DNA of 64,000 nt from a virus: the IMG/VR virus record IMGVR_UViG_3300024324_000002; one strand, given 5' to 3'. Shown one piece after another: positions 2,575 to 41,702 of the stretch. Made by a program: the position numbers and the translations under genes. Each line of letters begins with the position of its first letter. The first letter of the stretch is position 1. The notes under the pieces were generated by a model. The model saw only the letters and a list, made by a program, of their open reading frames with translations, did no database searches and was not told the origin of the DNA.

Positions 2575-2581
2575 GTTTTAA

Positions 2582-4687
2582 TTATTTATTAAGTAGTTCT
2601 CTTATTTCATCAGCTGTAAACATTTGTTTAAACTGACTCTTAAATCTTTTATTTGTTTTATATTTATCAGCAAAAAGCTTAAATGCTTCTGGATTAGTTT
2701 CTTTGTTTTTAATAACTTCACTTAACTTATCTTTCTCAACCTGTTTTTTATCTTCTAGTTTAGGTTTATCTTCTGGTTTAGGTATATATTCACTTACCTT
2801 TTTATCTAAATCTTTTTTATCTGTTTCTATATTAGATTTTATATTTGTAGATAAAGAAGATGTACTAGGTGAATTCTTACCTTCTATAGCTTTTAAATAA
2901 GCTGACATAAATTTTCTTTCATCTGCACTTAAATCAACATCCGCTTTAGCTGATATAGATTGAAACTTAATACTTCTCTCTGACCACTTCTTTGCTTCTG
3001 TTTGTAATAGATCTCTTATTTGTTCAAATCAAAATGTAGGATTATCTTGTACTATTTTATTAACATCTACAAATTGTATTCAATCAGTACCATACATTTT
3101 ATTTAACATATGTGTAACCTTCTCTGTTAAATTCTTACCTTCATATATCTTTGTCTCTTGTTCTATTCTTAATTGCTCATTACGTCTCTTAGCTTGTTCA
3201 TCTTGTCTAGCTGTTTCTAATTTAAGATTTATAGCTTTAATATCTTCTATAGCTTTAATATCTCATGCAGCTGCTTTTTTTACCATATCCATATATGGAG
3301 CAAAGTATTCTGTATCAACTAAATCTCTAGCTTTATCTAAGAATGATTGTTCACTAGCAAATATCTTAGCAGCTCATTCTGCTTTATCTGCTACAGCTGA
3401 CATATTCTTATTAAAAGTATCATCAGCTGCTTGTAAATTACTATCATATGTTGCTAATGTATTTTGCATTATAGCATCTATTTCTGATGCAGGAACCTGA
3501 ACTCATGATTGTCCAGCTAATCATCCAGTTATAGCTGCACCTAATCATGCTTGATTATATGCTCTATTAACACTAGATCTTAATCTACTTATTTCTTGAG
3601 CATTAGCTGTAGCATAAGCTGTTCTTCTATCTTCTATATCTTGTTCTGATTCCGTAATCCTTTCTAGCTTTCATTCACTTTTTTTCTTTTCTAATTCAGC
3701 TAATTCATCAGCTTGATCTTTTAATATTTGTTTTTGTTCTTCAGTCTTCTTTTTATTTTCTTCATCAAACATAGATAAATTAGTTTTCATTTCATCCGCC
3801 ATAACCTCACTTCATGTAGGTCATTTAACTTCTTCTTCTATTTCTCCAATTGTTTTCTTCTCTATTTTCTTACCTGTAATATCTTCTGTTAACATAGATC
3901 AACTTCATTCCTTATCTTCAGTTTCAGTTTCAGTAGTTCATCCTTCTTTTATTTTTCTTTGAAGTTCTAAATTTTGTTCAGCTGTACCAGTATAATTTTC
4001 AATACCATATTTTTTAGCAACAGCTAACCTCTCTGGGCTATCCCATGCTTTAGAAAATATATCATCTGTTAAACTAATTCCTACAGTTTCTGTAGTAGAT
4101 GTAGGTGTTTCTGTAGTAGGTGTTTCTGTAGTAGGTGTAGTTTTATTTTCTTCTACTTTAGGTTCTTCTGTTTTAGGTGTAACATTTTCTGTAACTAATA
4201 TTTTATCTTTACTAGGTAACTCTGATTTATTTGGTTGTCAAACAACTATACCTCAATGCTTAATAAATTGTTGTATTCATTTATAATCTCATTCTTTATT
4301 TAATCTAGTAAGTTCAGTTAAATTTTCTGCCGATATTTGTCATTTATTTTGTTCAGCTTTTATTAAAGCCATTGCAAGTTCTTTTTGTTCTATTGGATTA
4401 AATTTATTAAAATCAGTATTTTCTATTTTAGAAATTACTTGTGTATTTAATTTTTGTCATATCTTTTTTGAATCTTCAAGTTTTTCATAAATTGATTTAT
4501 TTCTATTACCAGATCATCACATTGCATTCATCTTAGATTGAGAATAACTCTCCATTTGTTTTTGAAGTTTACTTTTTTCTTTTTTCTTTTTCTTATCTCA
4601 TGGAGTATCAAAATTCATATTTAATCAAGTATTTTCATCTGGCTCATTTAATGATTGATATTGTCATTGTCCATAATTGTATATCAT
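2582..4687 (-). CDS. Hypothetical virion protein, K/E-rich coiled coil (701 aa); internal/ejection protein candidate by position
   Basis: Code-25 ORF translated end to end, ATG 4687 to TAA 2582. T-T-E-T-P repeats near 4080-4140. Lies between the nozzle-like gene block and the fibres. Confidence 0.6.
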
Positions 4688-9290: not shown

Positions 9291-10631
9291 TTACGCTTCA
9301 AGATCTTCTAAAATCATGTAAGCATTATCATATGATTGACCAGCAAATACATTAGCTAGTTTGTATTCAAATGTATATTCTCTGAAATCATTAGTAGTAA
9401 CTGGTTGTTTAATAACACAAAATCTATTTGCTTGTGTTTTAACAGCTACACCTTGTTCATTCATGAATTCATTTTCTGGAACTCTGAACCCTACTAATTC
9501 TTTAGGGAATACGAATGCTTTAGAATCATTACTATATATTCTATCCATTTCTGGTAGAACGATAAAGTTAATATTTCTGAAGTATGGAGTAGATAAACTT
9601 TCTAATCCGTATTCAATAGTCTTAGGTATGAAGTTTTGGTAAACTACATCACTTCTTAATAGACCAGATATAACTGAAGCGAATTCAGTATTACAGAATA
9701 CAGTTGGTTTTTCATTACCAGTATAAACAGGAGCTGTAGAAGCTAAGTTTAATATTCTTTGTAGTTCTCTTAATTTAGTTTGATCAGTAGTCATAGCAGC
9801 TAAACTGAATCTAGAAGTTTGACCTCTAGCTTCTCTCTCATCTATAAGAGTAACATACCCTTGTAGTTCTGGAGAGTTACCACCATTGTTTTGTCCGAAG
9901 AACCAAGAACTAATTATGTTCTCTAAAATTTGCATTTTAGGTTTATTAAATTCATTTGATAAAAATGTTTTAACATCAACTAGTAATCTTGTTTTATTTA
10001 ATTCTTCAGCTTGTATAGATACTGAACCACCAAATTTTTGGAAGTAAGTAGTAACTAATTTAGCTGTAGGATCAGATACAGTTCTTTGAACTTTATCACC
10101 TAAAGTTAATTTAGGAGCGATGAAAATAACTTTATCACCATCTTTAACACTAACTGCAGAACTAACTGTAAGTGTGTTAGTAGCTGGATCTATACCTGTA
10201 ATTGTAACTTGTGTTTCAGTACCAGCAGATCCTTTAGCAGGAATTGTTCTAACGTAATCGTTAATTGCAAATGTACCTACTGATTCTACTATAATTTCTG
10301 TAGTAATTGAATCAGTTGTAATTTCAGATGAAGTTGAAAATGAATCACCTTCATACCAAGATACTGATGTACCAGTTTCTGATACAGTAGATTCTATTTT
10401 ACTAATTTTAGCAAATTGAGAATCTTGCATTCCTTCTAATTGAAACATTGCACCTGCACTAGATCCATTAATATTTCTTTGCATTCTATACCAGTTAGAT
10501 GGTCAGAACCCTAAGTAAGCGAAACCTGGATACTCTCTTATGTAAGAAGTCATAAAACCTATACCCTTACCTATAACTCTATCTACTATGTCCTGTGTAT
10601 TTACAGGAGTAGTATTTACTGCATTTGCCAT
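9291..10631 (-). CDS. Major capsid protein, putative (446 aa)
   Basis: Canonical position (TerL-portal-scaffold-this gene) with a strong terminator after it. Track ORF 9291..10484 extends upstream through a single TGA to ATG 10631. No family motif recognised by eye. Confidence 0.65.
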
Positions 10632-13353: not shown

Positions 13354-15498
13354 CTAGTATGTGTTTAAAGAATAATTAAAATGTGGTACATAATTATCAG
13401 GATTATACTCATGTACTTCTTGTTTATCAAATTCCACTCAATAGTCTTCTAATTCTTTTCTATCTCTAAGCCCTAATATTGTTACTACATAAAACATACA
13501 CATCATTAATCCATCAACTAAATCATCATGCATACTTCATTTACCTTGATATTTAGCTATCGTACTTTTAGTTCATGTTAGTTTAACAAAATTCTTCACT
13601 TGATTTATTAAATTAGTTTGATCTGATGCTATTTGTAATATACCTTTATCTAATAATAACTGTGTAGTTTCTACTAAATGTTGCTTACTAGATACATAAA
13701 ATCATTTCTTATTCCAACTCCATGTTCCATTACCTGTAAATTGTACCCAGTAATCTATTACATGTTCATGTTTCTGATCTTCCTGCATTATAACCTTACC
13801 TATTGTTGTAGCATCTCATATAACTGTTACATTTGTAAACCTATCTTTATATATCTTAGCTTCTTTTACTTGGTCTAAATAATGTATTCCCTTCATCTCT
13901 ACTGATTCTTGTATGATATGTTTAGTTATATTGAATAAAACTAATGATCATGGATCAGCATTACCTCAAAAATCTACTCATAATATATAATAATCATCTT
14001 GTGGTATCACTATAGGTGGTACTACATTACCTATAACATTAAATACTTGCATCTCATCTAGTATAACACAGTATGCTCTAGCATAATATTCTTTTAATCA
14101 TGCTTTCTTTAAGTCGTTTATAGTAAATTCCATCATCTTATTTAACTGATTCTCCATTTCTTCTACATCTATCTGGTTATTCTCATCTATATTTCTCTTA
14201 TAATTCAATTCAAATAACTCTCTCTTCTGTAATATATCTACTCTGTGACTAGTTATTAGTTCATCTCATAGTTCTCAATCTATTAATAGTCTATAAAACC
14301 AATGTTCTCTTGGTGTCTTCTCTGATATAGTTGTAATGATAAACATAGATTCTGTTTCCATTAATGCTCTTTGACTGAATAATGTCCAGAATTCATCTGG
14401 TATATACGCAGCTTCATCTATTACAGCGAAATCACAGGCTAATCATTCCCCTGTGGCTCATGAACCTCCAAAGTTATATAATGATACCATTCTAAATGTA
14501 GTACCTGTTAGATTACATTTAATAGTATACTTACTAGCTTGTATCTCTATTATAGGTTTACCGTCTGGTAACTTCTTTCATATAAAGTCTGATAAGAATC
14601 ATTCCATATAATCCATTACAGATGAACCTACATTACTTAAGTCTGGTACAAAATATTTAATCTGTCTAATCTTTCTTCATCCAAATCATGTTCACTCTTT
14701 AAATAACTCTCTTGCACTTAAGAATGCTCATAAGAATGATTTACCAGATCATTTACTTGCTGCTACTACATTAATCTTGTCCCAATCCATTATAATCTTT
14801 CTACTCCATTGTAGTAATGTATAGTTAGAAGCCTTTCTTAGTGAATGTCAATATGTTAGTTCTCTATTTGGATCTCATATATCATGATTAATATATCATT
14901 GTTTTAGTTCTGCTGTTAATACTTCTTCTAAACTTATCTCTCATTCTCATTCTATACTCATTGCTCCATAATTCTCTTGTCCTCTTTCTCATATTTTATA
15001 TGATGAACTCTTGTTCTTAACTATCTTCTCTTGTATAAATCATATGTATCATGTGTTTTTATTATATCATAATGGTACACTTCTTAATAACGGTGCTACA
15101 ATTAAATAATATTTATCTGATAAGTATCATGTCTTAACTAATTCTTTAATATAGTATTGTAATATAGTATGTGCTTTTATATCTATAATGTTTTTAGTTC
15201 TAACTAATTTAGGTAATGATATTTTAATATGATTATCCCCAAAGAATTCAGATAACAATCATGTTACATGTAATTCTACTGGGAAAAAATATTTAATACC
15301 ATACTTACTTCAATATTGTTTATCTAATACTCTCTTATCTCCATCAGCTATATTAGTTCATTCCTTATACATTAATTCTCTAGATGCTATTATTTCATCT
15401 ATATCTCATTTAAATGCTCATAAGAATCTTTTTATTGCTTCAAAAAAATCTTTGTCTCATATAAATCAATTATATTTAATATCTTTTAATGTGATCAT
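13354..15498 (-). CDS. terL: Terminase large subunit (714 aa)
   Basis: Walker A AASKGSGKS (14737-14760, first Gly = TGA). Walker B CDFAVIDEAAY. Nuclease-type motifs ILGVDFGGNADP and MHDDLVDG. Confidence 0.9.
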
Positions 15499-15507
15499 AT
15501 TTTAGTT

Positions 15508-15792
15508 TTAATATTTAAGTTTATCATTAGCTCATGGATGCATAAAGATTCATATGTTCATATTAGTCTTTGCTGCCTTACTTCAATGTAATGTTTGTGC
15601 ATGTTTAATTAAATCTAATCTAACCTTTAATGCTTCAGCTCATGCATGATTCTTTGCATCTTTCATTAACTCTTTCATCTCATTAACTGTGTCAGCTAAT
15701 CAGAAGTCGGATTGCTCCAACTTCTTAGCTAACTCAATGTCAGGATCTTTTTCTGTTAATGATTGATCAGTGTTCAATATTATTTCTGACAT
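15508..15792 (-). CDS. Small protein upstream of TerL (94 aa); small-terminase candidate by position
   Basis: ATG 15792, TAA 15508, ending 9 nt before the terminase large-subunit ATG. No motif recognised. Confidence 0.35.
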
Positions 15793-15808: not shown

Positions 15809-18800
15809 TTAAAATGCTTTAGTAATTAAATCTCATGGTAATCATTTTATTGTTGTACTTCTTTTATATTTTGGTTGTGTTAACCTTGCTCTTCCTTTCT
15901 TACCTAGTCTAGCTTTCTTCTTAGTTGTTTTTACATAACTTGTCTTAGGTTGAGATTTCTTTGTTCTAATCTTTATCTTAGCTTCCGTTCCACTAACTAC
16001 ATCTTTATATAATTCTCTAGCTAACATTTCTCTAAAAGCTACTAATGTAGGGAAGTTCTGATAATTAAAATTCGATAATGGTTTAGATTTATTATAATCT
16101 AATATCTCTTTATAATTATGTGGTATCTCTTTTCATTTTATAAATTGTCATATCTCTGGAAATTGTTTAGCAAATCATGGTCTAGCTCATGATGTATGTG
16201 GACTCTTCATTCAGTTTCTAAATGAATTACTAAATGATCATCTCTTTTTAAATGTATTCTTATTACCAGAATTTATAATAGAATTCTCATCAAAGTCTAA
16301 TAAATCATTATTTACTTTATAATTCCAACTCATTAATTGTCTTTGTGCTTGTTTAGATATTCAATTAAATACATCGTTATCTCTTAATCTTTTACTTAAT
16401 TCTGAATTAATAAATGTTAATGCCGCAGCTTGTTTAACTATCTTTTCTTTAGTTGATGATGATGTGTCATCTATTGTATATAGAATTTTATTAGTTATAT
16501 CTATAGTATCTTCAATAGATCTCTTAGATAATTCTACTTTCTTACCATCATATCACCGTACATTTCATACAGATTTTAATCATATAGCATATACTGTCTT
16601 CATTATCTTAGCATCAGTATCTCCATCTTCCATATTCTTACTAGAGTATAATAACATATTCATCGCATTGTTTAATGAGTTTCATAATTTTCATTTATTT
16701 AATCTATCCATTAAATCACTATGATACTTCTCTGTATGTAATCATTGTACGTAACCATGATTCTCTAAGTTTAAATCTAAATAACCAGACTCTTGCATCC
16801 ATTTCATAGCTTTTGCCTTATATCCATCTTCTTCTTCTTTAGTAAGTTTCTTTTGTTTATAATCTGTAATTCATTGATCTTTAAGTTCTTCTTTAGCTTC
16901 GTATGTTAATTCACTATACTTATTATATCATACATATGATACCAAATGTCTAGCACTAAATTCTTTTATATGTGATAACTCATGCATCAATTTACTACTA
17001 GCATGTACTCTTGTTCTTGGATCATTTATAAAATTCTCTTTAGTGATTCATAAATCATTTAATGCATTAGTAATATAATCATCCATCTTAGTGTCATACT
17101 CTCTATCCTTTCTATCTGATAACTTTCTACCATCTTTATCAAACCTAGCTCATATTCATGGATATGTAACTAATCAATCAAATAACTTATTAACATAATC
17201 ATAATCTAATTTTCATTTTGTTAACATTAATTTATTTAAATCATATCACTTCTTACCAAATCAATGTTCTTTAAGTTTTTGTAAATCTTTATCTCATTGT
17301 AACTCATGAGTATATTTTATTAATACTTCATCATTCATACTCTTTGAACTAATGAATCAATTTAACATTGTAGTTATATATGAAAAATCATTAACACTAT
17401 CTATGTGCATTATCTTATTTTTCTTATATGTATCCATTGTATATTGTTTTCTAGGATTCATTTGATTATATCATAACAACTGTAAGTTATCCATCCCTTC
17501 TGGATCAGTATAAAATTTTGGCATATCTTTACTGTATCCATATCTTAAATACGCAGAGAAGTTTGCTTTCATTGCTTCATGAACACTAAGTAACATATTT
17601 TCTTCTGGAAACATTTCTCTTCTTTGTATGGTTGTTTCAACAATCTTTGCTGGTTTTAAATACCTAAGCATATGTTCCATTAATCAATATCATACAGCTC
17701 ACATTCTTGTACTTGTGTCATATCATTCTGATAAATCCCAATTCTTCTTTTCTCTTGATATAGTTATATCTATAGCTGTTAAAGTGTTAGTCATTGCAAA
17801 TATAGCATCTGACATTTGTGTTTTCTCATCTTTGTCACTAAAGTCATGCTTCTGTAATCTCATAGCTATTCATGCTGCCATTAATATATTATATCATAAC
17901 GCATGTGTATAGTTTATAAAATCTCCAAAGTATTGCCTAGCTTTTAACCAATCTCATTTTGTTGCAGCATTTAATGCTGCCATAGGTAATAACATTTTTT
18001 CTCCAAGTGTAGCTACCTTATGCAATCCCCATCAATTTAAAAATCTATAACTTGTTAAAAATATTTTAGCTGGCATCCAATCTCTAACTAAAAACATTGG
18101 ATCTCTATATACTCATGATGTTGATATAACTCATCCTCATAATTCATTATACTTTCTATAAAATAATGCTTTAAATTGTTTTTCATTTCTTTCTGATAAT
18201 TTACTCCAAGCTATTAATTCATTTACATTAGTATGTCCAGTTGCTTCCATTACATGTAATGCTGATACCTTTCTTCTTAATGGATCATTAATCATATCTA
18301 TAGCAAATAATGGTTCTGTAACTATTGTATCTATTACATTACTAATAGCGTTTCTTGTAGCCGCATCCTTTACTCATAACTCTTTCATTATCTTATCTGT
18401 AACTATTTTATTTCATGAACTTATTTTCTTTTGTAATGTTTGAAATAATGTTTTAGTTAATTGTGCATCTATTCATTGTCCTTGCCCTGCCGTACTCTCT
18501 GCATATAATCATAATCATTTAACTAACTCATCTCACATAGCTTGTTTGTTTCATAACGCTTGTGCTTGTGATAATAATTCTAATCCATTTGATAACGCTT
18601 GAGTCATTGCTGCAGCATGTCACATTCCTCATAATGCAATAGAACCCGATTGGTATGACCAGAAATAATATCCTCATTGTAATTCTTTTATTCATTTTAT
18701 AATAGCTGGTTGATCTTTGTTATATAAATGATTATATAATCTAGACATAACTTTCTTTTCTCAATCTGTAGCTTGTCTTCCTTCTTCAGCCATCCTTCAA

Positions 18801-21800
18801 ATTAAATAATCTTTAAATCCTTTTTCTGTTTTAACTCATCTCATCCTATAATAAAATTCCATATCTCAACTGAACATTCAAATTAAATCTGTAAAGAATG
18901 TATCTTTCTTAGAATATTTACTAAGATCTAATCATCATAAATCTTTTAATTTATGATTAACATTATTCAAACTATCAATAATAGTATACATTAATCAATC
19001 CATTTCTAATACTCCTTTACCATCTGGTGTAGCTGCCTTGTTTGTATCTGTTAATTTTTTAGCATACTCTTTTATTATTTCAAGATGTTCTTCATTTAAA
19101 TCTTCTAATTTAGTTTTATTATCATTTCTATTATAAGTTTCTATTTTCTTAACAACTCATTTTAAATATAATTCTTTATTAAATATAAATCATTTATTTG
19201 TTTTCTGAATAGCTGCATACATAGGTTGATCTATTATTCAATGCATTCAAGCTATTTGCTCTTTACTTAATCATGCTTTATTTAAATCATTTATAAAATC
19301 TTTTGTCATGATTAAATGTTTTTTCTTTATCATATTTCATTTACTGTGTTGTCATACTCATCACTCTATTCATTTTGGTGGTGTTCATCATAATACAGAT
19401 TCCCTAAATATAGTTAAATAGAATGTAGATTCTTCATCAAAAGATGATAACCGTTGTTCTACTTTTGTCTTAACTCATTCTTTTAATAAAATATCTAAAG
19501 TGTTAGTTTTATCTATTACATTAGATAATGCTTTTAATTCATGTCATCTCATCTTATATGAAATATCTAACTTAGTAGTATAATCAAATATTTGTTTATC
19601 TTTAATTTTTTCTTCTTTTGTTTTTTGAACTGTTTTAGTTTTAGATGTATCTTTAAGTATTTCTATACCATTAACTGATTTTATATTATCTTCATTTAAA
19701 GATTTATTCTCTGATTCTATTTCTTCTATACTATTATATAAACTCTCCTCTTGAGCGTTATCTGTTTTTATAGTATCTTCATATACTATCATCTCACTAT
19801 CTAGTGGCATATCACTACTTTGTGTACTACTTATATCTATTGTCTCTGCTTTACGATAATCTTTAATATTTTCTAAAGATTTTTTATCTATTGTTTGTGT
19901 TTGATATACTATTAATTCATCTAAGTTATCAGTTGGTTGTTTATAATGTGCATGTATAGGTAATACTTTTATTTCTGATACATTAATATTATGTTGATCT
20001 TGTAATAAATGAGTATACATACTTATTTGATTTTGAAAATCTTCTCATAAACGACTTATTCTTTTAAAATCTCTTTTACTTGCTATATCATATATAGTAA
20101 CATCTCAATTCTTTTTTACTGTAAGTAAATCTAATTCTCATGCTATTCATAATTTTTCACTATGTACTTTAAGATAAGTTCAAGATACTTTCTCTCATCT
20201 TTTATCTAATTCTTTTTTAAATTCATCTAATCAATATATAAAATAATCAAACTGGTTTTGATCTTTAATATGAATATATTCATTAAAATCTTTTACTCCT
20301 TCTCAAAAATAATCTTTAATAATTTTATCTAACTCTAATCAAACTGATCTTGATTTTTCTAAATAATCTGGATGCTCTGCTTCAAATTTTTCTCTTGTAT
20401 ATGTAGTAACTCTATCATATGTTTGTCATGTTTCAGTATTAACATAATTCTTTTTATCTTCAGATAAGATTATTTTATTTTGATCTTCAAATAAATTTTC
20501 TAATTTTTTATCTAATTCTTTTTTACTAACTTCTTTAATAGTTTTTACTTCTCAATCTTTAATAATAGTTAATCCTTTATATTCTTCCTTAGTTCTCTTT
20601 TCTTTCTTAACTGGTTTAACTACCGCTTGAGTCTTTTCCATATTAACTAATGCCGCATCATTAATTCTATTTTCATATTGTCTTTCTGATTCTCATTCTA
20701 ATCTTTTTATATACTGATGCATCCTCTCATGTTCTAATGAAAATCTTTCCCATGATTCTATTGTTTTAAATTTATTAACTGGTAATGGATCTGCGTATGT
20801 ATTATCTGTCCATACCTTCTTCTTAAATCATTTCTTTGTTTCTTCTTTATCTATCTTTATTAAAGCTGTAGATTTCTTAGTCTTTGGATCTTCATATATA
20901 ATTAATTGTGTAGATCATTTTTGTCAATGTGCATTCGTTATATCTGTAGCATATTCTACTGATGTATCTTTATATATAAGCTCTTCTCATTTTAAATCCT
21001 CTATCTTAGTATCATATCTCTCAAGATTCTCTTTCATTTCTTTAGTAATATTTTCTTCCATTCTACTCTCTTGCTTCTTAATATCTTCTATATCTAAAGC
21101 TAATTCTTTTATTAATTCTTCATTGAATTGTATTTCTTGATTTCTATATTCTATAGATTCTTTTAATTTCTGAATCTTCTCTTTATTTGATATAGGTTGT
21201 TGTAGTATAACCTCTGGAATGTATTCTGGATTATAAGTTCATAAATATGATTCTTTACTTTTAGTTGTGTTCCTAGCTGCATAGTTTATATATTTAAACT
21301 TATGTGCTGTATTTAATAATCAAAAGAAATGTCTGTTACCATATCATAACGATAGTAATGCTATCTTATATTTAGTTCTTTCGTTTAATGAATTAAAATC
21401 TATTTTATCTCTTACATTCTTAATATCTAAATAATTTTTATTATAATCATAAGCATCTTCAAATATCTCTTTATATTTATTATCTAATTCAATATAAGTT
21501 TGTTTTGATCTCTTAACTTTTTTTCATTTTTTTATTACTAATTCATCACTACTTTTTTGTATCGCCTGTTCTTCTTCTGATGGATTAAATAATTTTTTAA
21601 TCTTTTCAAGTGTACTATCTGCTAATTTAAAATCATGAGAATATTCAAGTGCTATATCAATTTGATTAAAAAGTTTTCTTCTATCATCATCATTTAAAAT
21701 ATACTCTTCTCTATCTTCTGTTTTTAATTTACCATCTTTATCAACTATCTTTACTTGTTTTACCTTTATCTCTTCAGTTAATAATTTTCTTGCATGTCCT

Positions 21801-24800
21801 CACTCACTAAATGATTCTACTATATAATCTCTCTCTGTGTGTTGTTTTAAATTAACTAATGTATCACCATACTTATTTAAAAAGAATTCTGTTAAGTTTC
21901 TTACGTATCATAATGATCATCCTGTTATATTATATGATATATTATCTTTACCTTTCTTACTCTTCATTATCTTTTCTATCTTATTAATAGATAGTTCTTT
22001 ATTAGGATTATTAAACGTTAATGCTAGTAATGATACTACATCGTTATAAAAATACTTTTGTGCAGCTGGTTCTGTTATTCAAATACTATGTAATGCCTTA
22101 CTTAACCATATCTCTTTAGGGAATTTATCAGACTTACTTTTAGCATAATCTAATACTAGTTGTGCTAATGAAGCTATGATCCCAGAATAATCTTCTCATT
22201 TTGTAATTCATTTATCTCAATTAAGTTTAAATAACTCTTTAAATATTGATCATAATGTAGTCTCTGTATCTATAAAATCCTTTGTTAAAATTATTGAAGT
22301 CTTATCTTCTAATATAGAAGTTTTCTTATCTGCATGTTTTTCTACTATTTGTAATAATGTATTAAATACTTTCGTAGTAGAAAATAAAGGTGATACAGTT
22401 TCTTTAGCTTCTACATTTTTATTTCTAGCATCAAGTATAGATGATGATTTTACTTCTTCTTTAATTTTAGTTTTAGGTTTTTCATCTCATATCTGTTCTA
22501 CTAATACATATGGATTTTTATAATCATTTTCTAATGCATCATATAAATCATCTCTTCATTTTTTTATAGCTGAATTAGCTAATACCATAGACTCTCTAGA
22601 TGCTAATGGTATTGATATTACTGTATCAGCATCAAAGTCTGCTTGTAGTTTAAAGAATATAGATTCTGGATGTCAGATAATATCATTAGATTTAACAGAT
22701 TGTTTACTTTCTATTACCTTCCCAGTCTTCTTAACTCTCTTATTTAATCATACATCTTCAGCAAATCTTATCTTATATACTCATGTATTCTCTTTATTAG
22801 GTACAGGATTTCTAAATACATATATTTGTAATGGTACGTCTCATCTTCTTTGTTTATGTAAGAATGTTAATCTCTTTCTATCTGTTTCTGATATAGAAGT
22901 TCCTTGTTCTTCTAATGTTCTTATTTCTTTCTTTAATGTTTTTAATGCATTTTTATGTACAGTTCAGTTCTTAGCTACTACTACTTCATCTCTTTTTAAT
23001 CTTAAATGTTTTTCAATTCAATTCTCATCTATTTTAGTCTTAGGTAAAAAGATTGTTGATTGTTGTATAACTGGATTAGTTCATTCTATTCATCATTTCT
23101 TTATAATCTTTTTAACTCATTGTATTATTCAATCTAATCTAGTATTAATAATAGTATCTGAAGCTCATCATATATTATGTGCCTTATTCATATATGTTAA
23201 CCATTCTCATACATCTCCATATATATCCATTGTCTCATCAAGTATACCTAATGATTGTAATTCTTTTTCTACAAAATTTGTTATCTTCTCTTTAGTTAAA
23301 CTAGTCATATATTCCATATCCTTATATCATAATAGATTTATGATTTGTGTTCATATAGCTTGTTCATCTTTCTTCTTTGATTTATCTTTAGCATTTACTG
23401 CATGTGATAAATCAGTATCATCTATCTTTCATTCTATAACCATCTTAATTCAATTCACTTCTATTATATTACCTGCTTCTGTTATATCTATTAATTCTTT
23501 TCATAATTTTAATCAACTCTTATCTATAACATAAGTTCTATTCATTACCTTAGATCATCAATCCTTATCGTATTTTTTAACAGTTCATTTATTTACATTT
23601 ATCTTAGCCATATAAACTCATTCATTTCCATTAGATTTAACATTTCATACTATATGATATTTCCATGCTCAATCTGAACCATCAAATCAATATAATTCAT
23701 TTGCTAATTCTGATATATCATCTGATGCAAATCATGCACCATCTCTATTAGATGCATTATATACAGTATCTATATCAGTTAGTATATCTTCAGTACTCTT
23801 TTCTAGATAAGAATAATCATCATACTCTTTAAAGAAATCTTTATATTCATTTAATATATTTTCTTTTTCTTTAATTGTTTTAGATTCTTTTATTCTTTTG
23901 AAAAAATCTGCTAACTTTCCATTCATTTCCTTATTATAACTTGTTGTTATTCATTGTTCTGCATCTTTTCTACTTGTTCAAATCTTTAATTCTTTTACTA
24001 TGTATGTTGTTGTTTTATCTGTTATCCCTTCAAATATTCTTGTTGTAGATGCCATCGCTGATTCTCTTTTAATAATTGTTCACATTCATTGATCTCATTT
24101 TGTATGTCATATAACTCTTATATACTCTTCTGTAAATTCTTTTTCTACTTCATTAAATGTAGGTTTATCACTTTTATATATCTGTACAAATGAACTCTTA
24201 TCTCATAATGTTCACATTATATATTCGTTCTCTCATAATCACATCCTCTCTTTTAATACCTTTCTTAAATATGAATAATCAATTACTATTTCATCTTTTT
24301 CAGTTCTTCATACTTCTCCTATAATAGTATCTACTTTCTTTTTAGAAACCTTATTATATAATTTTATATTAAAATCTTTTAAGATTCATAGATGTTCTGG
24401 ACTTAAATCCTTAGGACTCTTTGTATTTAAAATATCTGTTATAAATTTATATCTATGTATTGGTAAAAAATAATCTGGTTTTTTATCTTTAATCTTCTTC
24501 TCATGTTCTGTAAAAAATTTATTAAGTTTAAATTCAACCCCTTGTATTCTAACAATAAATCCATCAAATAATCCTAAATCATTAGTTTGTAATAATCTAT
24601 ATTTAATATCTCATTCTTTATTTAAGTCATCCATTAAATTCTTCATTCTTATTGGAGTCTCCATCATAGCGTCTTCCACAACAGATGTTTGTTTTGGTTT
24701 AGTATAATCTGTTCATCAAGGTTTCATATAATAATTATCTTCTATGTTTGGATATTCTGTTTGCTTCTTTGTTAATGTTTTAACTTTAGTTAAACTACGA

Positions 24801-27800
24801 AGTCTTAAAAATTTCTTACGTAATGCTTTTATAGTTTTATTAACTAATTCTCTTCTTCAATTTTCCTCAATACTTCAATTAGATTTTTGTAATTTATATT
24901 CTATACCTAAATTATCTAATAAATCATCTATGAAGGTATGGAATTCTTCATACTGAACTCATTTATTTTTAACATTTTTTATTACAAATGAATCTACTTT
25001 ATCTTTAAATTCATTATTATTAATATATAACTCTCTTAAATTAGAAGCATTAGATTCATCTTTATATTTAGTTTTAATAACATTAAATAATCTATGTCAT
25101 TCTTCTTGTTCAAAATTCTTAGCTCATGTTAATGCTGTAGCAAATATTTTTTCTATTGGATTCTCTTTCATTGTATCATCATAGTCTCTTACTCAATCAG
25201 CATATTTCTTTATTCTTTCGTTCTCTATATCTAACATAGTAATCTTAATTGTATCTTTAGATATCTTTTTCTTTCCTACTACATTACCTTCCTTATTTAA
25301 TAGATGTACTTTTTCTTCTTTTAATAATTCAAACATATGATCTAAATTCTCTTGATGATTTAATATAGATTCATTGTTTTCTATAAATTTATGTAAATCT
25401 TTTAATTCTATTTGTTTATGTGTTTTTATAAAGTCTTCTACTTTTAAATCAATTTCTTTATTCTGTGCTTTTATTTCTGTACTTAATTTTTCTTTATCTC
25501 ATTTTAAAGTCTTCATTTCTTTCTCTACTTCTGTTTCTACTTCTTTTAATAAAGCTATCTTTTCTTTTCTATTAGCTTTAAGTTTATTTAATTTATCTTT
25601 CTTAATCTGTACTTCTTTTGAATTATCTTTATTTACATATGCGAAATCATATTCTTCTATTTCAGTATCTAAATCTTTTATATCTTCTACTATCTCTTTT
25701 GTTTTCTTTACTGAATATAAATCAGCTTTCATCTTACCCTTAGTAGCTAATGTCTTATATAAATAATCTTTTAAATACTTATCCATAGATTCAGTATATC
25801 TCTTATATGAATCTTGATTAATAAATATTTCTTTATCTTTACTTAATATATTATCTATAGCTTCTATCTCTTTCTTAACTCTCTCTATCTCTATTCTATT
25901 AACATCCTTACTTGGATCCATAGCCTTCTTTCAGAAATTAGATATAGTATTAATATGTTCTAATTCTCATAATTCAATTTCTAAATTCCCTCTCTCAAAT
26001 TCTAATTCCCTAATATAAAGTTCATATAATTTTTCTGATTCCTTTGTGAAATTACTTGTATTAAATTGTTTATAAAATTCTCCTATTATAACTTTCTCTG
26101 TTTTATCTCATAATAAACCTTCAGCTAATTGATAAACATCCTCCTTAGTTTTAATTGTATCATTCTTATGTATCTCTTTAAATAATTCATAGTTATCTAT
26201 TATCTTACTAGCGAATGCTCTTGTATAAAATTGATTCATTGCATTATCCTCTATATTAAAAAACTTAATTTGTTCTTTAATAAAAGACATAACCTCTTTA
26301 CCTGTCTCTGTTAATTCTGATTTACCTACAATCCTATCTTGAATATATCATGTTTGACTTATCTTATCCTCCATTCTAAATATATTCATAACATAATCAT
26401 CTATATTTAAATCGAAGTTATTTACTGTCTGTGCTGGATAGTATTGTTTTAATCAATCATCAATAGTCTCTGCTGTTAATAATTGATCTATTATCTTATT
26501 TGATTTTTTATGATACTCTAAATATCAAACATCTTTTATTTTACCATCTTTAGTTTTTATCTTCTTTGTATTATTAAATGATATATCAAACATCTCTCAT
26601 ATCTTCTTTCATACACCAATATAAAATATACTCCTTTCTTTTTTTGTCTTTGGATCTACCATTCTACCATGAGCAAATGATATATAATTATCTTGTTGAG
26701 ATAATATGTTAGATATTTCATTTCTGTTTGTAGGAGTAGTCCCTAAATCTATAGTATTTATGTTTCATTCTCCAAATACATGCTCTAAATCTTCCTGTAA
26801 ATCAATAATGTTTGAACTATTATATCAATCTTTTTCTCATGAATTATATCAACTACCTAATGGCTTCTTCATTTCTTTAGGTGATTTACTTATATCCTCA
26901 AAAATAGAATGAAAATCTTTAGGTGATTTAACTTCTTCCATCTTATTTAACATAGAATGTTTAGAAATAGATACAAGTTCTCATTCTTCTACCCCTAATA
27001 TTTTTTTATCTTCTTCTGTTACTATTAATTTTTCAGTACTTAATAACTCATCCTGCTTTCATTGACTTAGTTTTTCTATCTTATCTACATCTATAGTTAT
27101 CTTTTGTTTAGTTACTGGATTAAAAAATGTTAATTGATCCTTTGGTTTAACTCATTTATTACTAGATGAATTTTGTAATCTATGTAAGTCTTGATATAAT
27201 TGTCTAGTTAATGTTTGTTTCTGATCTATATCCTTAGTATTATTTATTTCATCTATCTTTTTAGTAAATGTTTCTAAATGTTTCTTCTTATCAGACCTAC
27301 TAAATTCTAATCTAGCTTGATTCAATTGCCCATATCAATTAATTAATCCTTTAATTCTAACTAAATCTTTCTCTAATTTCCTATTCATTATAATCTTACC
27401 TGCTGGATTAGCTGTCTTTAATGATCTAAATATCTTATCTGTTTCCATTAATGAAGCATTTATCCTTTCCTCAAATCATAACATCTTAGATATAGCTCAA
27501 TCTAATGTAATTGTTTTATTAGCTCATTTCTTATAATTAGATTTAATAGAATCCCACTCTTCTGATATAACTTTAATTAATGCATCCTTATCTCATTTAA
27601 ATAATGTAGATAGTTTTCATAAATCTCATACCTGTTGTACTAACTTTTGTGCATTTAATATTTGTGACCTAGCATCTTTCTCCGTAATAGCGTTTCCTTT
27701 CTTAGCTTCATATTCTACAAGTCATAATGCTAAGTCTTTCATATTTTCGTCTCAAGTTAAAAAACTTGTTACCGCATCATAGTATGGATTTAATTCAGCT

Positions 27801-29782
27801 AAATGTTTTACTGCCGAAGTTGCTCATTTTACTCTTGCTGTTTCTCATACAAACTTAGATCCTGCCCCTAATACAGCCATGAATGGTTCAAAAAATGTAT
27901 CTGATACTAGATTTACTACAGCGTTAGCATCTGTATCTACAGTTCTTAAATGTCTATCTACTATAGCACTACCTGCTAATGTTTCACTTAATCATCTAGC
28001 TCAATATGTTAATCATTTTGCTCAAGTTATCGTTAATCTTTTAGCCTTATTTAATGATAATAAAGGTTTAACTATATCTGCTTGTTTAGCTATCTCTCAT
28101 TGTTTCCTTAACATCTTACTTACCTTATCTATCTTTCATGTTACTATATTAGCTTTACTTAGTTTTCATAAACCAAATACTACTTCTGCTAAATCATCTA
28201 CATTATATGTTATGTGTGTAGCTAATGATCAAATAACCCCTGTGTTAGCTAACATTAATTCATATTCATCTCAATATACTTTTTTAAAATCCGTATCTTT
28301 TTTTAATACTGGATTAACTTGTGCTATATTAGATCATACTAAAGCTCCAAATATCATATCTGCTCCAGAAAAAGCTTGTTGTATCCCATTTCATACAGCT
28401 GCTCAAAAGTATTTTATAGTATCTACTACTCAATCTGCATTATTCATTTGTCATATTCTTTTCCTCATCTCTATATTATTGTAATACATAGATGCCGCTA
28501 TATCTGTACCTTCTCTTTTTAATAATTCCGACTTATCCCATTCTGACATTTTATCAAATTCAGTTTTATATGCATCCTTTAATATATCATCAAACGGTTT
28601 AGTTCCTCATTTACTACGTGATTCTTGTGATTGTTTATGAAACTCTGTCATTATTCATCTAAAATAATTACTCCTTGCTGTCTTTTGTCCAAATAATACA
28701 GACTTCATCTTAGCTCTTTCTTTTGGATCTTTAGTAATAGCTAAACTTTCATAGTAATGCTTCTCATCACGCATCCTTTTTTCAAAGTATACATCCGCTA
28801 CCTTCTCTAAATAAATCTCTAAATCACCTCAATCTTTATCTTTATCATGATCTCTATATAAATATTTAAACTCTTTCATTAATTTCTCCTTCTCTGGTTG
28901 TATAACCTCCTTTCTTATTAAATCATCTGTAGCTTTACCTGCAGCATCTGACTCAAAATTAGCATATGTCTCATATGCGTTCTTTCATTCTTGTGGTTTT
29001 ACATACCTAGTAGCTATATCATTCCTTTTTTTATTTAAAAAACTGTTATATCATTTAGCATATTCATCCCATTCTCATCTAAATTTATCTATTACCTTAG
29101 TTTCTATCTCTCATTTAATCTCTTCTCTTCTTCTTTGTTTAGATTCTAAACTACTACTTAACTTATATTCTGATATCTCTTTCTTTATTTGAGCAGATAC
29201 CATATCATTAAATTCCTTATTTTGTCTTTTAATTAAATCATCATATTTATCTTTAACTGTTTCTTGATATTCTTTCTCATAATCAGATCATGCTTTCGAT
29301 GTTTCCTCAAATGCCCCTAATTCTTTATATAATTCTTCTTGATTTCATTTAATGTATTCTGGTCATCATGTAATTCATATAGTTTCAAGTGGACTCCATA
29401 TCTCTTTCTCTTTCTGATATTGCATAATCTTATTAGTCCTATCATCTTCTTGTTTACTTAAAGAAATACTTTCATCTTTAAATAACATATCACCTACATT
29501 AGATAATCATCCAAAATAATTATCTATCTTTTGAGAAGCTTCTCTTTGTTCTTTATCGTCTCATGCTACTAAATCATATACATTACCTACTCAATATCCA
29601 ACATCCGTTATTATTGATAATGGTGATTCTTCCCAATTTTCTTTAACATTACTCCATAATGACTTTTCTCATTCTCCATATATATATTTTTCTCCCCAAC
29701 TAGTTTCTTTGTCTTCCTTTTTTGGAAGCTCTTGTGCTGTACTTTGTTGCACTTGTTTTATGTTCTTGTCTTCTAATGACAT
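15809..29782 (-). CDS. Giant multidomain protein (4,657 aa) with RNA polymerase beta-prime-like double-psi beta-barrel motif; candidate virion/ejected RNAP
   Basis: Checked triplet by triplet. The frame has no TAA/TAG between the TAA at 29801-29803 and the TAA at 15809-15811, and the first ATG is at 29782. All five minus-strand track ORFs inside it are in this frame and end at TGA. The motif IIGHPESIFFKLQADFDADTVISIPLASRE has its DFDAD at 22625-22639. Confidence 0.85.
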
Positions 29783-34165: not shown

Positions 34166-34718
34166 AAAGAAATTAGGTTAACAAATATAAAAAGAAATTT
34201 TTTTATTTCTCACTTAACAGTTTATTCATAACTGACATAATGTCAAGAAAAAAAGACATAAAAGTATTTTATATCTATTTTATAAGTTTTAATGTTTACC
34301 CCTATGAAACTGTACAACTTTACTTTAAATAAGCCATCAGCATTTTGTCTACATATCTAGTCAATTTATGACATTCCCTTAGTAAAGCCATTCCCTCCAC
34401 TGACATATTTTTAACCCCCTTCTAACTTTTCTATATAATCTTAACTATTCCTCTACTAATTTATCCGTCCTTATTTATACTATGGCTATAGAAAGCCATT
34501 ACTGTTTTTATTAAACTATATTATACATACTCAGAGTTTAATCTATACCCCTGTAAAACTTAACAGGTTTGGCTATAACATGCGAATGTATATCCCTTGA
34601 CATTATATTATCTCTCTTATTAAAACCTTATAAAAGGTAGTATTGGATGTAAGGGGTACCCCTATACTATAACTACTACTGGGACAGATTACCCCCCAAC
34701 AACAGCAACACCATCACC

Positions 34719-35058
34719 TTTTTTTATTTTGATTTGTTTTTTGAGTTTTGTTTTTTTTTATTTTTTATTTTGTTTTTTCTTTGTGTGTGTGTGTTTGTTG
34801 TTGGCTTAGGTTAGGTATTAGTTTGTGTTGTGTGTGTGTTGTGTTTGTGTTGTGTGTGTTGTTGTGTTGTGTTGTGTTGTGTTGTGTTTGTTGTTGTGTG
34901 TATGTTGTGAGTATAGTGTTGTGTTGGCTTAGGTTAGCGGTTTGTTGTCGTATTGACTTTTTTTTTTTTCGGGTAGTGTGTGTTGTGTTGGTTTTTTGTT
35001 ATGGTGGTGGTTTGGTGTTTTTTGTTTTTTTTTGTTTTTTTTGTTTATTGTTTTTTTA
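34719..35058. repeat. G/T-only low-complexity tract (degenerate TG/TTG microsatellite)
   Basis: About 340 nt almost devoid of A and C on the plus strand. TTGGCTTAGGTTAG is repeated at 34801 and 34924. Immediately preceded by a C/A-only run at 34690-34718. Confidence 0.9.
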
Positions 35059-35157
35059 TATATATGTATATATATGTTATTATTATATTATTTATTAGTA
35101 TTATGATATAATACTAGATATATTATATATCTGATATAAATAATATAGCTGGGGAAT

Positions 35158-35235
35158 AAAAAGACTTTTTATTAGGAGAGGGGGAGAATTATATAATTGT
35201 ATTATATATTCTTGTCTCTTAATAAGAAGTCTTTT
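35158..35235. repeat. Long imperfect hairpin/cruciform
   Basis: AAAGACTTTTTATTAGGAGAG pairs with CTCTTAATAAGAAGTCTTTT, with an inner GAATTATATAAT/ATTATATATTC stem. A second 8-bp hairpin ATAGCTAA/TTAGCTAT follows at about 35252-35272. Confidence 0.5.
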
Positions 35236-35672
35236 GATTGGATAGCTAATTCTTAGCTATTTGATTTATGCTTTTTTCTTACTATCTATTATATAGAATA
35301 GCTGGAAAAAAGCAAGGCTTTTTTTTATTTTGTTTTTGTTTATTGTTTGTTCCGATTCGTTTTCTGATTAGGCATAGAACTTATTCTAGTTCATTAGTCT
35401 TAGGATAGCAATAGTAGGATTAATATCGGGATAGGATTTTCTGGGATGTCTTTACTTGCTGGTAGCTTTAACTTAATTTATTGTGTTTCTTTTTCTGGAC
35501 TCTTCTATTAGGGTTCTGTGTATACTACATTCAGTAGGGGGTTCGTTGTTTGCCACTAGGGCTCGTTAGTTTATTTAGGTTCGGGTAGGGGAAGGATTGT
35601 AGTCTTCCTTGTTTATGGCTAAGCGATTAGCTTAGTCTGATGTTGTCTGGAATGATCTTCCTTTTTCTTTCG

Positions 35673-35717
35673 AAAAAAAAAGATGATAGTATCTACATTG
35701 CTGTAGATACTATCATC
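35673..35717 (-). terminator. Strong rho-independent terminator
   Basis: Perfect 16-bp stem GATGATAGTATCTACA / TGTAGATACTATCATC, 4-nt loop, then a 9-nt T-run on the coding strand. Confidence 0.8.
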
Positions 35718-35830
35718 AATGTGATAGCACTGGCTATTCCACTAAGGAATATACCAGTGATATCACTTTTTATTTCATAGTATTTACTGATTAATACAGT
35801 AAATACTATGATTAGTATTATTGCTGTCAT
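35693..35830 (-). CDS. Tiny hydrophobic protein (45 aa), uncertain
   Basis: MTAIILIIVFTVLISKYY...ITLMIVSTAM. The 3' end is buried in the terminator stem. Confidence 0.3.
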   Translation of the reverse strand: MTAIILIIVFTVLISKYYEIKSDITGIFLSGIASAITLMIVSTAM

Positions 35831-35909
35831 AACTTTTTTTTATTAAATTATAAGTGGATAATATAGTAGCTTAATTACTTAGTACAGTATTAGTGTACTA
35901 TAATATTAT

Positions 35910-35934
35910 CCATAAAATTTTTAGTAGTTGTGTG
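35910..35934 (-). promoter_or_regulatory. Conserved 25-nt motif, copy 1
   Basis: Plus-strand CCATAAAATTTTTAGTAGTTGTGTG. Lies 79 nt upstream of the ATG at 35830. GCCGTAGGC mini-hairpin at 35941-35949. Confidence 0.5.
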
Positions 35935-36295: not shown

Positions 36296-36319
36296 CCATA
36301 AAATTTTTAGTAGTTGTGT
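36296..36319 (-). promoter_or_regulatory. Conserved motif, copy 2
   Basis: CCATAAAATTTTTAGTAGTTGTGT lies 34 nt upstream of the ATG at 36261. GGATCTTTGATCC hairpin at 36327-36339. Confidence 0.5.
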
Positions 36320-37116: not shown

Positions 37117-37140
37117 CCATAAAATTTTTAGTAGTTGTGT
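37117..37140 (-). promoter_or_regulatory. Conserved motif, copy 3
   Basis: CCATAAAATTTTTAGTAGTTGTGT lies 44 nt upstream of the ATG at 37072. Confidence 0.5.
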
Positions 37141-40495: not shown

Positions 40496-40519
40496 CCACA
40501 AAATTTTTAGTAGTTGTGT
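40496..40519 (-). promoter_or_regulatory. Conserved motif, copy 4
   Basis: CCACAAAATTTTTAGTAGTTGTGT lies 88 nt upstream of the ATG at 40407. GCCGAAGGC hairpin at 40526-40534. A 9-bp hairpin follows the motif on the coding strand. Confidence 0.5.
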
Positions 40520-40544: not shown

Positions 40545-41702
40545 TTAATAAAATAAATTCTTTAGTCCATTGATAACTTCCTCTATCCAATCTAATCTTC
40601 ATTTCATATTACTTATCTCTGTCTTTAGTTTTATTATCTCTGTATTCTGATCTGTTAATCTAGTCTCTAGTTTCAATACTCTTGTAGCTAACTCCATATC
40701 TATACTAGGTGATGGAGTAACTGGAGTTGGTTTAACTATTGGAGTTGGTTTAACTATTGGTGTTGGTTCTATTACAATAGGTTCTTGAACCTTATCATTT
40801 GTAGACTCCTCGTCTCCTCCTAGTTTTAATCCTCATAAACTATTTAATGCTGCTTCTATATTCAATGCTACATCTCATCCAGCTGGCATCTTAGTTCCTG
40901 TTCTTATTAATGTTTCTCTTATCTGTTTATATGTTAATGTTGGATCTACTTCTAACATCAATGCTATAGCACTACTAATCTGTGGTGCTGCGAATGATGT
41001 TCATGGTTGTCTATGTATAGTTCCATCTCTATCTAACATGTCTGGATAATATCCTTTACCTAATATCTCTGTGTGTTCTGTATTATGGTAGAACTTTTTC
41101 TTATATATAAAGTTTCCTTTATGTGAATAATAACTTCATACACATATAATACTATTGTCTTCACAATGATATGAGTTAGATATCCTTGCTTTGTTTTGTA
41201 ATGTAGTTACTACCATTATCCCTGCATCAGTTAATTCTTTTAGCTTAGCTGAATATTCTTTGTTCCTCCATGTTACACTTAAGTTCACTATCTTAATATC
41301 TCCTCTAGCTTTTATCTTATCTAGTATAGGTACTAACTCTTGGTATCTACATGATGTACCATTACAGTAATCATATCTAATTACTTCTGCTCATGGTGCA
41401 TATCATACTAATCATCCATCATTATGTGATGATGTGATTAATGATTCTATTCCTACTCAATGATCTGAATTAGTAAAGCTATCTATTACTGCTATCTTAA
41501 TTCATTTACCTGTAGCTTTATCCCATGCTCCATAAAAGTCTGATACTTTAAATGATCCATCTCTTGTTGATTGATAATATGAATCTCATTTGTTTCATTC
41601 AAAGTTTAATTCACTTGGTGTATATGCATGAGCCTTATTAATCACACATCATATAAGCATTACAAATAATACTATTGTAATTATAGTTAATATTTTTCTC
41701 AT
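40545..41702 (-). CDS. Secreted subtilisin-like serine protease (S8 family) with C-terminal coiled coil (385 aa)
   Basis: Signal/TM segment MRKILTIITIVLFVMLIGCVINKAHA. Asp IKIAVIDSF; His SDHGVGIESL; Asn IVNLSV; Ser QPGTSFAAPQISSAIALM. P/T/V-rich linker followed by heptad repeats. Confidence 0.75.

Follow-up and report, generated by a model that had tools for sequence, protein, structure and literature searches.

A 4,657-codon gene of a genetic code 25 phage encodes a giant protein with a candidate RNA polymerase-like catalytic barrel

The virion RNA polymerase (RNAP) of coliphage N4, gp50, is an encapsidated protein of approximately 3,500 aa with a central polymerase and large flanking regions that are needed for ejection and packaging, encoded in a genome of approximately 65-70 kb. 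Another class is formed by the single-chain two-barrel RNAPs, whose published layout consists of a barrel termed DPBB-B (DPBB, double-psi beta-barrel), a connector, a barrel termed DPBB-A with the pattern [RK]xP ... DxDxD, a bridge helix and a trigger loop. Many of the published two-barrel families share no significant sequence similarity outside the DxDxD region, and DPBB-B is poorly conserved among them. Phage members include gp66 of the crAss-like phage phi14:2 (2,180 aa; PDB 6VR4; bioRxiv 10.1101/2020.03.07.982082), which is packaged in the virion, gp96 of Thermus phage P23-45 (5,002 aa; PMC10770324), a virion two-barrel RNAP fused to the tape measure, and the non-virion enzyme YonO of Bacillus phage SPbeta (839 aa). 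Here, a 64,000-nt stretch of viral DNA (IMG/VR record IMGVR_UViG_3300024324_000002; the window) was analyzed, in which a single open reading frame (ORF) encodes a protein of 4,657 aa with a central block that resembles the catalytic barrel of these enzymes. The literature on code-25 phages and on two-barrel phage RNAPs was searched and nothing like this giant protein was found to be described.

The giant ORF occupies nucleotides 15809..29782 of the minus strand, from an ATG at 29782-29780 to a TAA at 15811-15809. It comprises 4,657 sense codons, including 207 TGA and 20 TGG codons, and contains no in-frame TAA or TAG. The uninterrupted code-25 frame that an earlier note on this DNA had placed here is therefore borne out, with the correction that it lies on the minus strand; a plus-strand reading of the same interval is full of stops and was rejected. 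The size given in that note, about a fifth of the genome, agrees with the 21.8% of the window that the ORF covers. In the remaining two frames of this strand, TAA/TAG occurs 478 and 536 times per 4,657 codons, so that the giant open frame is not attributable to chance. Translation with TGA as Gly yields a protein with 6.4% Gly and 0.4% Trp, compared to approximately 2% Gly and 4.9% Trp if TGA is read as Trp. Because the amino acid composition fits TGA as Gly, code 25 was taken as the sensible reading, and code 4 (TGA as Trp) was rejected on the same grounds. TGA provides 69% of the Gly codons of the ORF, and its frame would be broken 207 times under table 11. The remainder of the window follows the same pattern, as nearly every gene lies on the minus strand and is open only with TGA as a sense codon; long minus-strand ORFs cover 54.6 kb with TAA and TAG as the only stops versus 6.8 kb under table 11. 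Neither tRNA genes nor Rfam families were found in the window, and without tRNA genes of its own the phage must rely on a code-25 host for TGA decoding. The public protein collection (P0170) translates this phage with TGA as Trp, as is seen at residue 43 of the major capsid protein (MCP), which is W in the collection and G under code 25. All 207 TGA codons of the giant protein are presumably stored as Trp as well, and this record will distort homology searches and structure predictions that are based on it. Two plus-strand ORFs bounded by TAA/TAG stops run antisense inside the giant ORF (26706-27536, 276 codons; 27879-28484, 201 codons) and are probably by-products of the codon bias of the strand.

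A related code-25 genome, IMGVR_UViG_3300027996_000026 (= Ga0233413_10000038, 66,648 bp), was found through the MCP in IMG/VR and JGI, and its gene order matches that of the window from the two genes upstream of the giant ORF through the tail fibres. It contains a syntenic and full-length counterpart of 4,191 aa. Residues 11-2876 of the window protein are collinear with residues 25-2836 of this relative at 27% identity, and residues 3400-4654 align at 32% identity. The window phage itself is present as contig k141_251864 (64,132 bp) of ENA ERZ27237568, where the gene was called as the same 4,657-aa product, and an exhaustive search with the MCP identified it on at least 24 contigs, of which 23 share most of the neighbouring proteins. 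Distant MCP relatives (29-38% identity) likewise carry a giant gene in front of a small ORF and the large terminase gene TerL. The giant product measures 4,513 aa on Logan contig SRR10132661_137208 (L015) and at least 2,275 aa on SRR31843399_337634, where it ends with the contig. On ENA ERZ27251151 k141_500596 (1-4461; L017) the gene is split into parts of at least 1,611 aa and of 1,319 aa that share a reading frame and are separated by one TAA/TAG plus ten codons, which could reflect a real division, a nonsense mutation, readthrough or an assembly error. This in-frame stop and the breaks under table 11 are what could be cited for an artefact, either an assembly chimera or genes fused by a wrong genetic code. 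Such an origin is effectively refuted by the complete lack of TAA/TAG where the other frames predict about 500, by a composition that is sensible only with TGA as Gly in a window that uses code 25 throughout, and by the many similar contigs. Based on the collinear homologue, the further giant counterparts and the identical product in an independent public assembly, the giant ORF is a real gene, and the chimera or missed stop that the earlier note had considered is excluded for practical purposes. Homologues of the core were searched for with single sequences and alignments as queries, by a word search of 5.8 billion proteins, tblastn of phage records, and searches of IMG/VR, JGI metagenomes and GTDB genomes, from which one relative genome could be retrieved.

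The position of the DFDAD motif and the surrounding peptide quoted in the earlier note proved exact (Table 1). The note had proposed that this block follows the pattern of the catalytic DPBB of RNAP beta-prime. In the window protein the block reads FRNPVPNKENTGVYK...AEDVGL...IIGHPE...LQADFDAD, compared to LRNPIPNKENLGVYK...AEDVGL...VILHPE...IQGDNDGD in the 4,191-aa relative, and its conservation was judged from these two full-length sequences. The R, P and H residues and all three Asp residues are kept in both proteins, RNPxPNKENxGVYK and HPE are conserved in a pair that is only 27% identical overall, and a 13-residue indel is found in the loop between the strands. A reading of DFDADTV as a haloacid dehalogenase (HAD) phosphatase motif was rejected, as the relative has DNDGDHF and DxDx[TV] is not conserved. 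An archaeo-eukaryotic primase (AEP) was also considered and rejected, as the conserved His precedes the Asp motif, which would be the wrong order.

A focused profile (A2), a 233-residue sub-alignment, was compared by hhalign to gp66 with 49 homologues, YonO with 35 homologues, gp96 of P23-45 and TSP4, and E. coli rpoB/rpoC. P values were derived from column-shuffle nulls, and a motif-fixed version corrects for a region that was chosen via its motif. In four of four families the top match of A2 was the catalytic DxDxD strand, with an empirical P of 0.01-0.05 each. The longest profile alignment obtained was that to crAss gp66, which spans 76 columns from the RxP strand to the DxDxD motif (FRNP/YRIP to DFDAD/DFDID; score 23.6; P=0.013; motif fixed P=0.0075). 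The alignment to gp96 pairs ADFDADTVISIP with VDFDGDTLVVLP (score 22.5; P=0.017; motif fixed P=0.04), that to YonO pairs LQADFDADTVISI with LQFDNDGDKALII (score 22.8; P=0.047; motif fixed P=0.11), and that to E. coli beta-prime covers DxDxD and the next helix (score 19.1; P=0.01; motif fixed P=0.125). Combined by Fisher's method, the motif-fixed values give P=0.0017, a figure that overstates independence since the targets are mutually homologous. Smith-Waterman alignment of the E. coli beta-prime barrel to the whole 4,191-aa relative found its best match at residues 2321-2391 (P=0.023), where LLNRAP of beta-prime is paired with LRNPIP, LHP with LHP, DFDGD with DNDGD and EAQLEARALM with KSELIARTAM. 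Global alignment of the isolated barrel (hhalign -glob) degenerates with differing loop lengths and was informative only for crAss (P=0.032).

Several results weigh against a polymerase. The field's operational filter for two-barrel RNAPs, [RK]xPx{20,100}DxDxD (paper supplement), is matched by both giant proteins, yet also by approximately 30% of shuffles of the window protein; the region was chosen for this motif, other DxDxD strings are present in the protein, and the motif alone is worthless as evidence here. The window protein has Ala at the fourth motif position, and a conservation judged from two full-length sequences is weakly informative. Two of the four families do not individually reach significance once the motif is held fixed, and all hhalign probabilities are below 2%. 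The window protein's own best Smith-Waterman match to beta-prime does lie at DFDAD, and is short and not significant (P=0.54). No RNAP family matched the region at E<=10 in Pfam (including RNA_pol_Rpb1_2 and RdRP), PHROGs, NCBIfam or PDB sequences, and full-length hhalign of the 800-residue core with gp66, the crAss profile and the YonO profile returned nothing. The MCP, portal and TerL of the window are furthermore without phmmer similarity to those of phi14:2, which speaks against a crAss-like lineage. The beta-prime pattern proposed in the earlier note thus stands in part: a conserved block exists and its catalytic strand is the best local match in four families, also after correction for the motif, whereas family libraries and core-length comparisons are empty. 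Together, the comparisons argue with moderate strength for a beta-prime-like catalytic barrel at residues ~2318-2396.

The second, beta-like and Lys-containing barrel, for which the earlier note had suggested looking, was not found by sliding hhalign windows or Smith-Waterman alignment. Two conserved blocks, at residues 1851-1913 and 2088-2100, are candidates for parts of DPBB-B; neither the sliding-window hhalign nor Smith-Waterman alignment with the E. coli beta barrel supported them. In a sliding-window hhalign search for collinear DPBB-B, bridge helix and trigger loop only noise was obtained, a result that also counts against a polymerase. GDK-x7-K, considered as a beta-barrel motif like that of E. 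coli beta, received no support from Smith-Waterman alignment with the real rpoB. An invariant QLxxDYAKxK, located 160 residues after DxDxD, resembles by eye the VDxxK of known enzymes (gp66 PVDNAK, QDE-1 LVDQSK, and gp96) and is listed as a candidate trigger loop; hhalign gave it no support. A complete two-barrel polymerase is therefore not established. The missing second barrel, the negative RNAP library searches and a motif that is common by chance in an Asp/Lys-rich protein would all be expected of a giant internal-core or cargo ejection protein without polymerase activity, in which the DxDxD block binds metal or Ca, or is structural, and its likeness to RNAPs is convergent or coincidental. 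The location of the gene beside the packaging genes and the rapid divergence, basic tail and modularity of the protein suit ejected proteins in general. This explanation has difficulty with the flanks of the motif, which, like the motif itself, outscore shuffled controls in the comparisons with the crAss and gp96 profiles, with a best beta-prime match in the relative that spans 71 residues and includes RxP, LHP and the post-motif helix, and with the conservation of three Asp plus R, P and H. It is considered unlikely, albeit the most serious competitor to a polymerase.

The preferred explanation, to which we assign an even chance, is a giant virion-delivered multidomain protein with a central, divergent two-barrel RNAP module that starts phage transcription. 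It is favored because the gene has a late position next to the packaging genes, because no other RNAP was recognised, and because gp66, gp96 and N4 gp50 provide precedents. The host of this code-25 phage is presumably a member of the Absconditabacteria or Gracilibacteria. The giant protein would be made late, together with the head and packaging proteins, and loaded into the capsid, and by analogy to the known virion RNAPs it may be ejected into the cell along with the DNA. A highly divergent single-chain two-barrel RNAP would occupy the central part of the protein (approximately residues 1850-2600), in which the strands with FRNP and HPE build the beta-prime-like barrel together with the DxDxD loop, and D2382, D2384 and D2386 bind the catalytic Mg2+. 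Acting on the incoming genome, this enzyme could then transcribe the first phage genes independently of the host RNAP, as gp66, gp96 and the N4 enzyme of unrelated fold do. Roles in packaging, ejection, envelope crossing or DNA binding may fall to the ~1,800 residues at the N-terminus and the ~1,250 at the C-terminus, the basic tail included. In this scheme, polymerase activity, the second barrel and early transcription are inferred; virion packaging and ejection are suggested, again by analogy, by gene position, fast divergence and the basic conserved C-terminus.

N4 gp50 is comparable to the proposed protein in its giant architecture with a central polymerase and in genome size, and it differs by its T7-like right-hand fold, which is not of the two-barrel type and has no sequence similarity to the window protein. 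The likeness to phi14:2 gp66 lies in the single-chain, virion-packaged layout with a DFDxD motif, in which the fourth residue need not be Gly (I/V in crAss, A in the window), and most of either protein is without recognisable homologues, as has been reported for gp66. In contrast, the window protein is twice the size of gp66 and has a nuclease insertion that gp66 lacks, and gp66 is encoded at the far end of the structural module whereas the window gene lies ahead of it. Neither gp66 nor a 48-sequence crAss profile showed HMMER- or hhalign-significant homology over the core. The motif is DFDAD in the window protein and DNDGD in the relative, in place of DFD(I/V)D, and by the sequence criteria applied the window protein is not a member of the gp66 family of crAss-like virion RNAPs.

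Shared with YonO are LQxDxDxD and a similar spacing from RxP to the motif (~40 versus 42 residues), and the DNDGD of the relative is a YonO-type motif. YonO differs in being small and not associated with the virion, and the similarity is limited to a 13-column strand. Some YonO relatives match Pfam RdRP (PF05183), which the window protein does not; it has no Pfam match at E<=10 and by the sequence criteria applied is not a member of the YonO/RdRP family. The YonO-type motif is one reason to consider a two-barrel polymerase that acts in the cell outside any virion, either an RNAP like YonO or P23-45 gp64 or even a DNA polymerase or primase of PolD type that takes the place of the DNA polymerase missing among the recognised genes, joined to a nuclease and to further domains for replication or against the host. 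A two-barrel core is shared by PolD according to published work, the window protein has a Cas4-like nuclease domain, and neither a DNA polymerase nor another RNAP was recognised by PHROGs among the window ORFs scanned (those of at least 120 aa, several of them without an assigned function). However, the giant gene is part of one late co-directional unit directly before the terS-like gene, TerL, portal and MCP, and not among the replication genes, which are located at 32-53 kb. The known non-virion two-barrel phage RNAPs are small, as YonO exemplifies, and approximately 3,000 residues of non-enzymatic appearance together with a basic tail would be more usual in a protein that is packaged or ejected. 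A purely intracellular polymerase is accordingly rated as distinctly unlikely.

P23-45 gp96 is similar in size to the window protein; both exceed 4,500 aa and both are encoded in a late module. In gp96 the RNP strand ahead of DFDxD is invariant, FRNPV matches the window sequence exactly and DFDxDT(L/V)(V/I)x(L/I)P nearly so; a metallopeptidase domain is annotated in gp96 and an HExxH motif is found in the window protein. The two differ in that the RNAP of gp96 is N-terminal and the remainder is a siphovirus tape measure, whereas the block of the window protein is central. Outside the catalytic strand no homology to the window protein was detectable, and host and genetic code differ. Size, HExxH, FRNPV and long K/E-rich helical stretches would also suit the tape measure of a phage with a very long tail, whether or not an RNAP is embedded in it. 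Such a gene is expected between tail-chaperone and distal-tail genes, and the window gene precedes the terminase instead. Long-tail genes were not recognised, including any tail tube, sheath or chaperone family, and adaptor-sized, large nozzle-like and fibre genes follow the MCP. Besides the central position of the RNAP-like block, the protein has no internal repeats, and with ~0.15 nm for each residue the tail would have to measure ~700 nm. A tape measure is therefore regarded as highly improbable.

The giant protein has a mass of approximately 530 kDa, and its modules are collected in Table 1. Within the N-terminal and central module, conserved blocks are located at residues 1501-1620, 1851-1913 and 2221-2580. 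Regions of distinct composition are Gly/Ala-rich (~400-800 and ~3600-4000, the latter moderately hydrophobic) or K/E-rich and helical (~1200-1500). No 19-residue segment reaches a Kyte-Doolittle value of 1.5, which leaves the protein without predicted transmembrane helices. Searches of Pfam, PHROGs, NCBIfam and PDB sequences with the whole protein and 17 segments gave one credible match, the nuclease-like domain at residues ~3119-3300. This segment matched the exonuclease family phrog_298 with E=6.6e-07 over 182 residues, by which it is assigned to this nuclease family; the match to Cas4 (TIGR00372) was weak (E=0.019) and Pfam gave none. A separate 201-aa gene (49980-50585) belongs to the same family (phrog_298, E=3.2e-11), and no mutual similarity between this gene and the insertion domain was detectable by BLASTP. 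The HExxH segment had no family match in Pfam, PHROGs or NCBIfam. Both segments lie in an insertion that is replaced by ~120 aa in the relative, and it is proposed that the window phage additionally acquired them. The insertion point and the split in L017 suggest a two-part organisation into residues 1-2876 and 3400-4657, and the separate 1,319-aa gene of L017 probably corresponds to the C-terminal module. The 4,513-aa homologue of L015 is recorded in its collection with Pfam PF25176 (DUF7831); this domain was undetected in the window protein and in the C-terminal 1,347 residues of the L015 protein, and a literature search on DUF7831 gave nothing.

The earlier note had also placed the giant gene just upstream of the terminase genes, which holds: its end is followed after 16 nt by the 94-aa ORF and then by TerL, and the stop of the preceding gene lies 18 nt before the giant ATG. 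Downstream of TerL follow the portal (weak matches), an acidic scaffold-like protein and the MCP, an assignment that is confirmed by its relatives, and then the adaptor-sized and large nozzle-like proteins, two proteins with peptidoglycan-hydrolase-like patches, and collagen-like tail fibres. The region upstream of the giant gene encodes a RecA/UvsX-like recombinase, an endolysin, a lipoprotein-type protease, an SbcC-like protein, a primase-helicase, a Cas4-like exonuclease, a resolvase-like nuclease and more fibre genes. No enrichment of sigma-70-like sites was seen. With 27-32% identity to the relative, compared to 60-66% for TerL, portal and MCP, the giant gene is among the fastest-evolving of the syntenic block, as expected of a host-interacting protein.

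Table 1. Coordinates of the features of the giant protein, its neighbouring genes and the repeated 20-mer in the window
Feature	Residues	Nucleotides	Strand	Observation
N-terminal and central module	1-2876	21155..29782	minus	collinear with relative, 27% identity
Conserved block, candidate part of second barrel (ENEYIMGTLGDKSSFVQIYK ... IIKRESAMAST)	1851-1913	24044..24232	minus	conserved in pair
Putative DPBB-A, beta-prime-like barrel (LQIYVFRNPVPNKENTGVYKIRF...DIIGHPESIFFKLQADFDADTVISIPLASR)	2318-2396	22595..22831	minus	conserved in relative; hhalign, Smith-Waterman
R-x-P strand, FRNPVPNKEN	2323-2332	22787..22816	minus	RNP invariant in pair and P23-45 gp96 family
DFDAD, candidate Mg-binding catalytic triad	2382-2386	22625..22639	minus	DNDGD in relative
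LAQLVLDYAKSKS, candidate trigger loop	2539-2551	22130..22168	minus	invariant QLxxDYAKxK; by-eye likeness only
Window-specific insertion	2877-3399	19586..21154	minus	~120 aa in its place in relative
HERMH (HExxH), candidate zincin metallopeptidase	3018-3022	20717..20731	minus	motif only, inside insertion
PD-(D/E)xK / Cas4-like exonuclease domain (putative)	~3119-3300	19883..20428	minus	phrog_298, inside insertion
C-terminal module	3400-4657	15812..19585	minus	32% identical to relative; homologous to L015 giant C-terminus
Very basic C-terminal tail, net +19	last 57 aa	15812..15982	minus	ends in conserved TTIKGLPGD (nt 15830-15856)
94-aa ORF, possible small terminase		15508..15792	minus	46% identical in relative; between giant ORF and TerL
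Large terminase TerL		13354..15498	minus	phrog_2 E=1.9e-21; 62% identical to relative
Two upstream genes, 146 and 253 aa		29801..31024	minus	conserved in relative; function not assigned
20-mer, five copies		35914-35933, 36300-36319, 37121-37140, 40500-40519, 52060-52079		coding-strand form ACACAACTACTAAAAATTTT(A/G/T)TGGTAG, imperfect palindrome

Several further features of the window were noted. The 20-mer AAAATTTTTAGTAGTTGTGT is present in five exact copies of one orientation (0.05 expected by chance). Four of the five copies are located 39-93 nt upstream of gene starts in the non-structural region, and two are preceded by a GCCTTCGGC mini-hairpin just past the previous stop. The repeat is a candidate phage-specific promoter or operator, judged by its sequence and placement, and is counted here in favor of a phage-encoded polymerase. 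Three of the five copies cluster just beyond ~34200-35900, an ORF-poor and T-rich region with long T runs that forms the sole interval of positive GC skew in the window and is possibly an origin or an early-region boundary. The endolysin is adjoined by a gene (40545-41702) for a 385-aa protease-like protein (phrog_3677, E=3.3e-18), unusual for a phage, which has a lipoprotein-type signal (MRKILTIITIVLFVMLIGC) at its N-terminus and a linker rich in Pro, Thr and Val. TGA as a Gly codon is nearly avoided by the MCP gene (9291-10631; 1/30) and a fibre-like gene (56800-58548; 2/50), compared to 41-75% of Gly codons in all other genes of at least 300 aa, and the MCP of the relative has 10 TGA. High expression or recent acquisition are possible reasons. 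Coding repeats with a 9-nt period are found at 15-640, 1756-2009 and 63908-64000, and the window ends share a 62-nt stretch with 93.5% identity (37-98 versus 63939-64000). Because the source contig measures 64,132 bp, the window ends or a circular junction are probably bridged by a fibre-like gene rich in repeats. Approximately 16 tandem copies of a 24-nt unit at 49351-49734, within the ORF 49228-49839, encode an 8-residue repeat rich in Cys, Thr, Phe and Asp (CTFDTGSD-like) in a 203-aa protein without a family match.

There is no doubt that the gene is real and huge and that nearly all of it lacks annotation, and a polymerase at its center is plausible. Standard pipelines that use code 11, or code 4 with TGA as Trp, hide or distort such genes. 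Even if it encodes no polymerase, a conserved gene for 4,200-4,650 residues without a recognisable domain over approximately 95% of its length represents a sizeable unexplored protein space. A bolder proposal, advanced tentatively and with somewhat less than an even chance, is a family of half-megadalton ejected proteins in phages of code-25 bacteria belonging to the candidate phyla radiation (CPR) that combine a divergent two-barrel polymerase with packaging and ejection modules, some of them with nuclease and zincin, as a third independent virion two-barrel RNAP lineage beside gp66 and gp96. In the boldest version of this proposal the polymerase would also replace the DNA polymerase that the genome appears to lack. 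If the protein is a two-barrel RNAP, it would be among the largest single phage proteins known and the first virion-type transcription machine proposed for CPR phages, whose Absconditabacteria or Gracilibacteria hosts are not yet routinely culturable. The strategy of a giant ejected polymerase, as used by N4, crAss and P23-45, would then have arisen or persisted in another phage group. The few single-chain two-barrel RNAPs, enzymes that are central to the debates on the origin of cellular RNAPs and eukaryotic RNAi polymerases, would also gain a third deeply divergent lineage.

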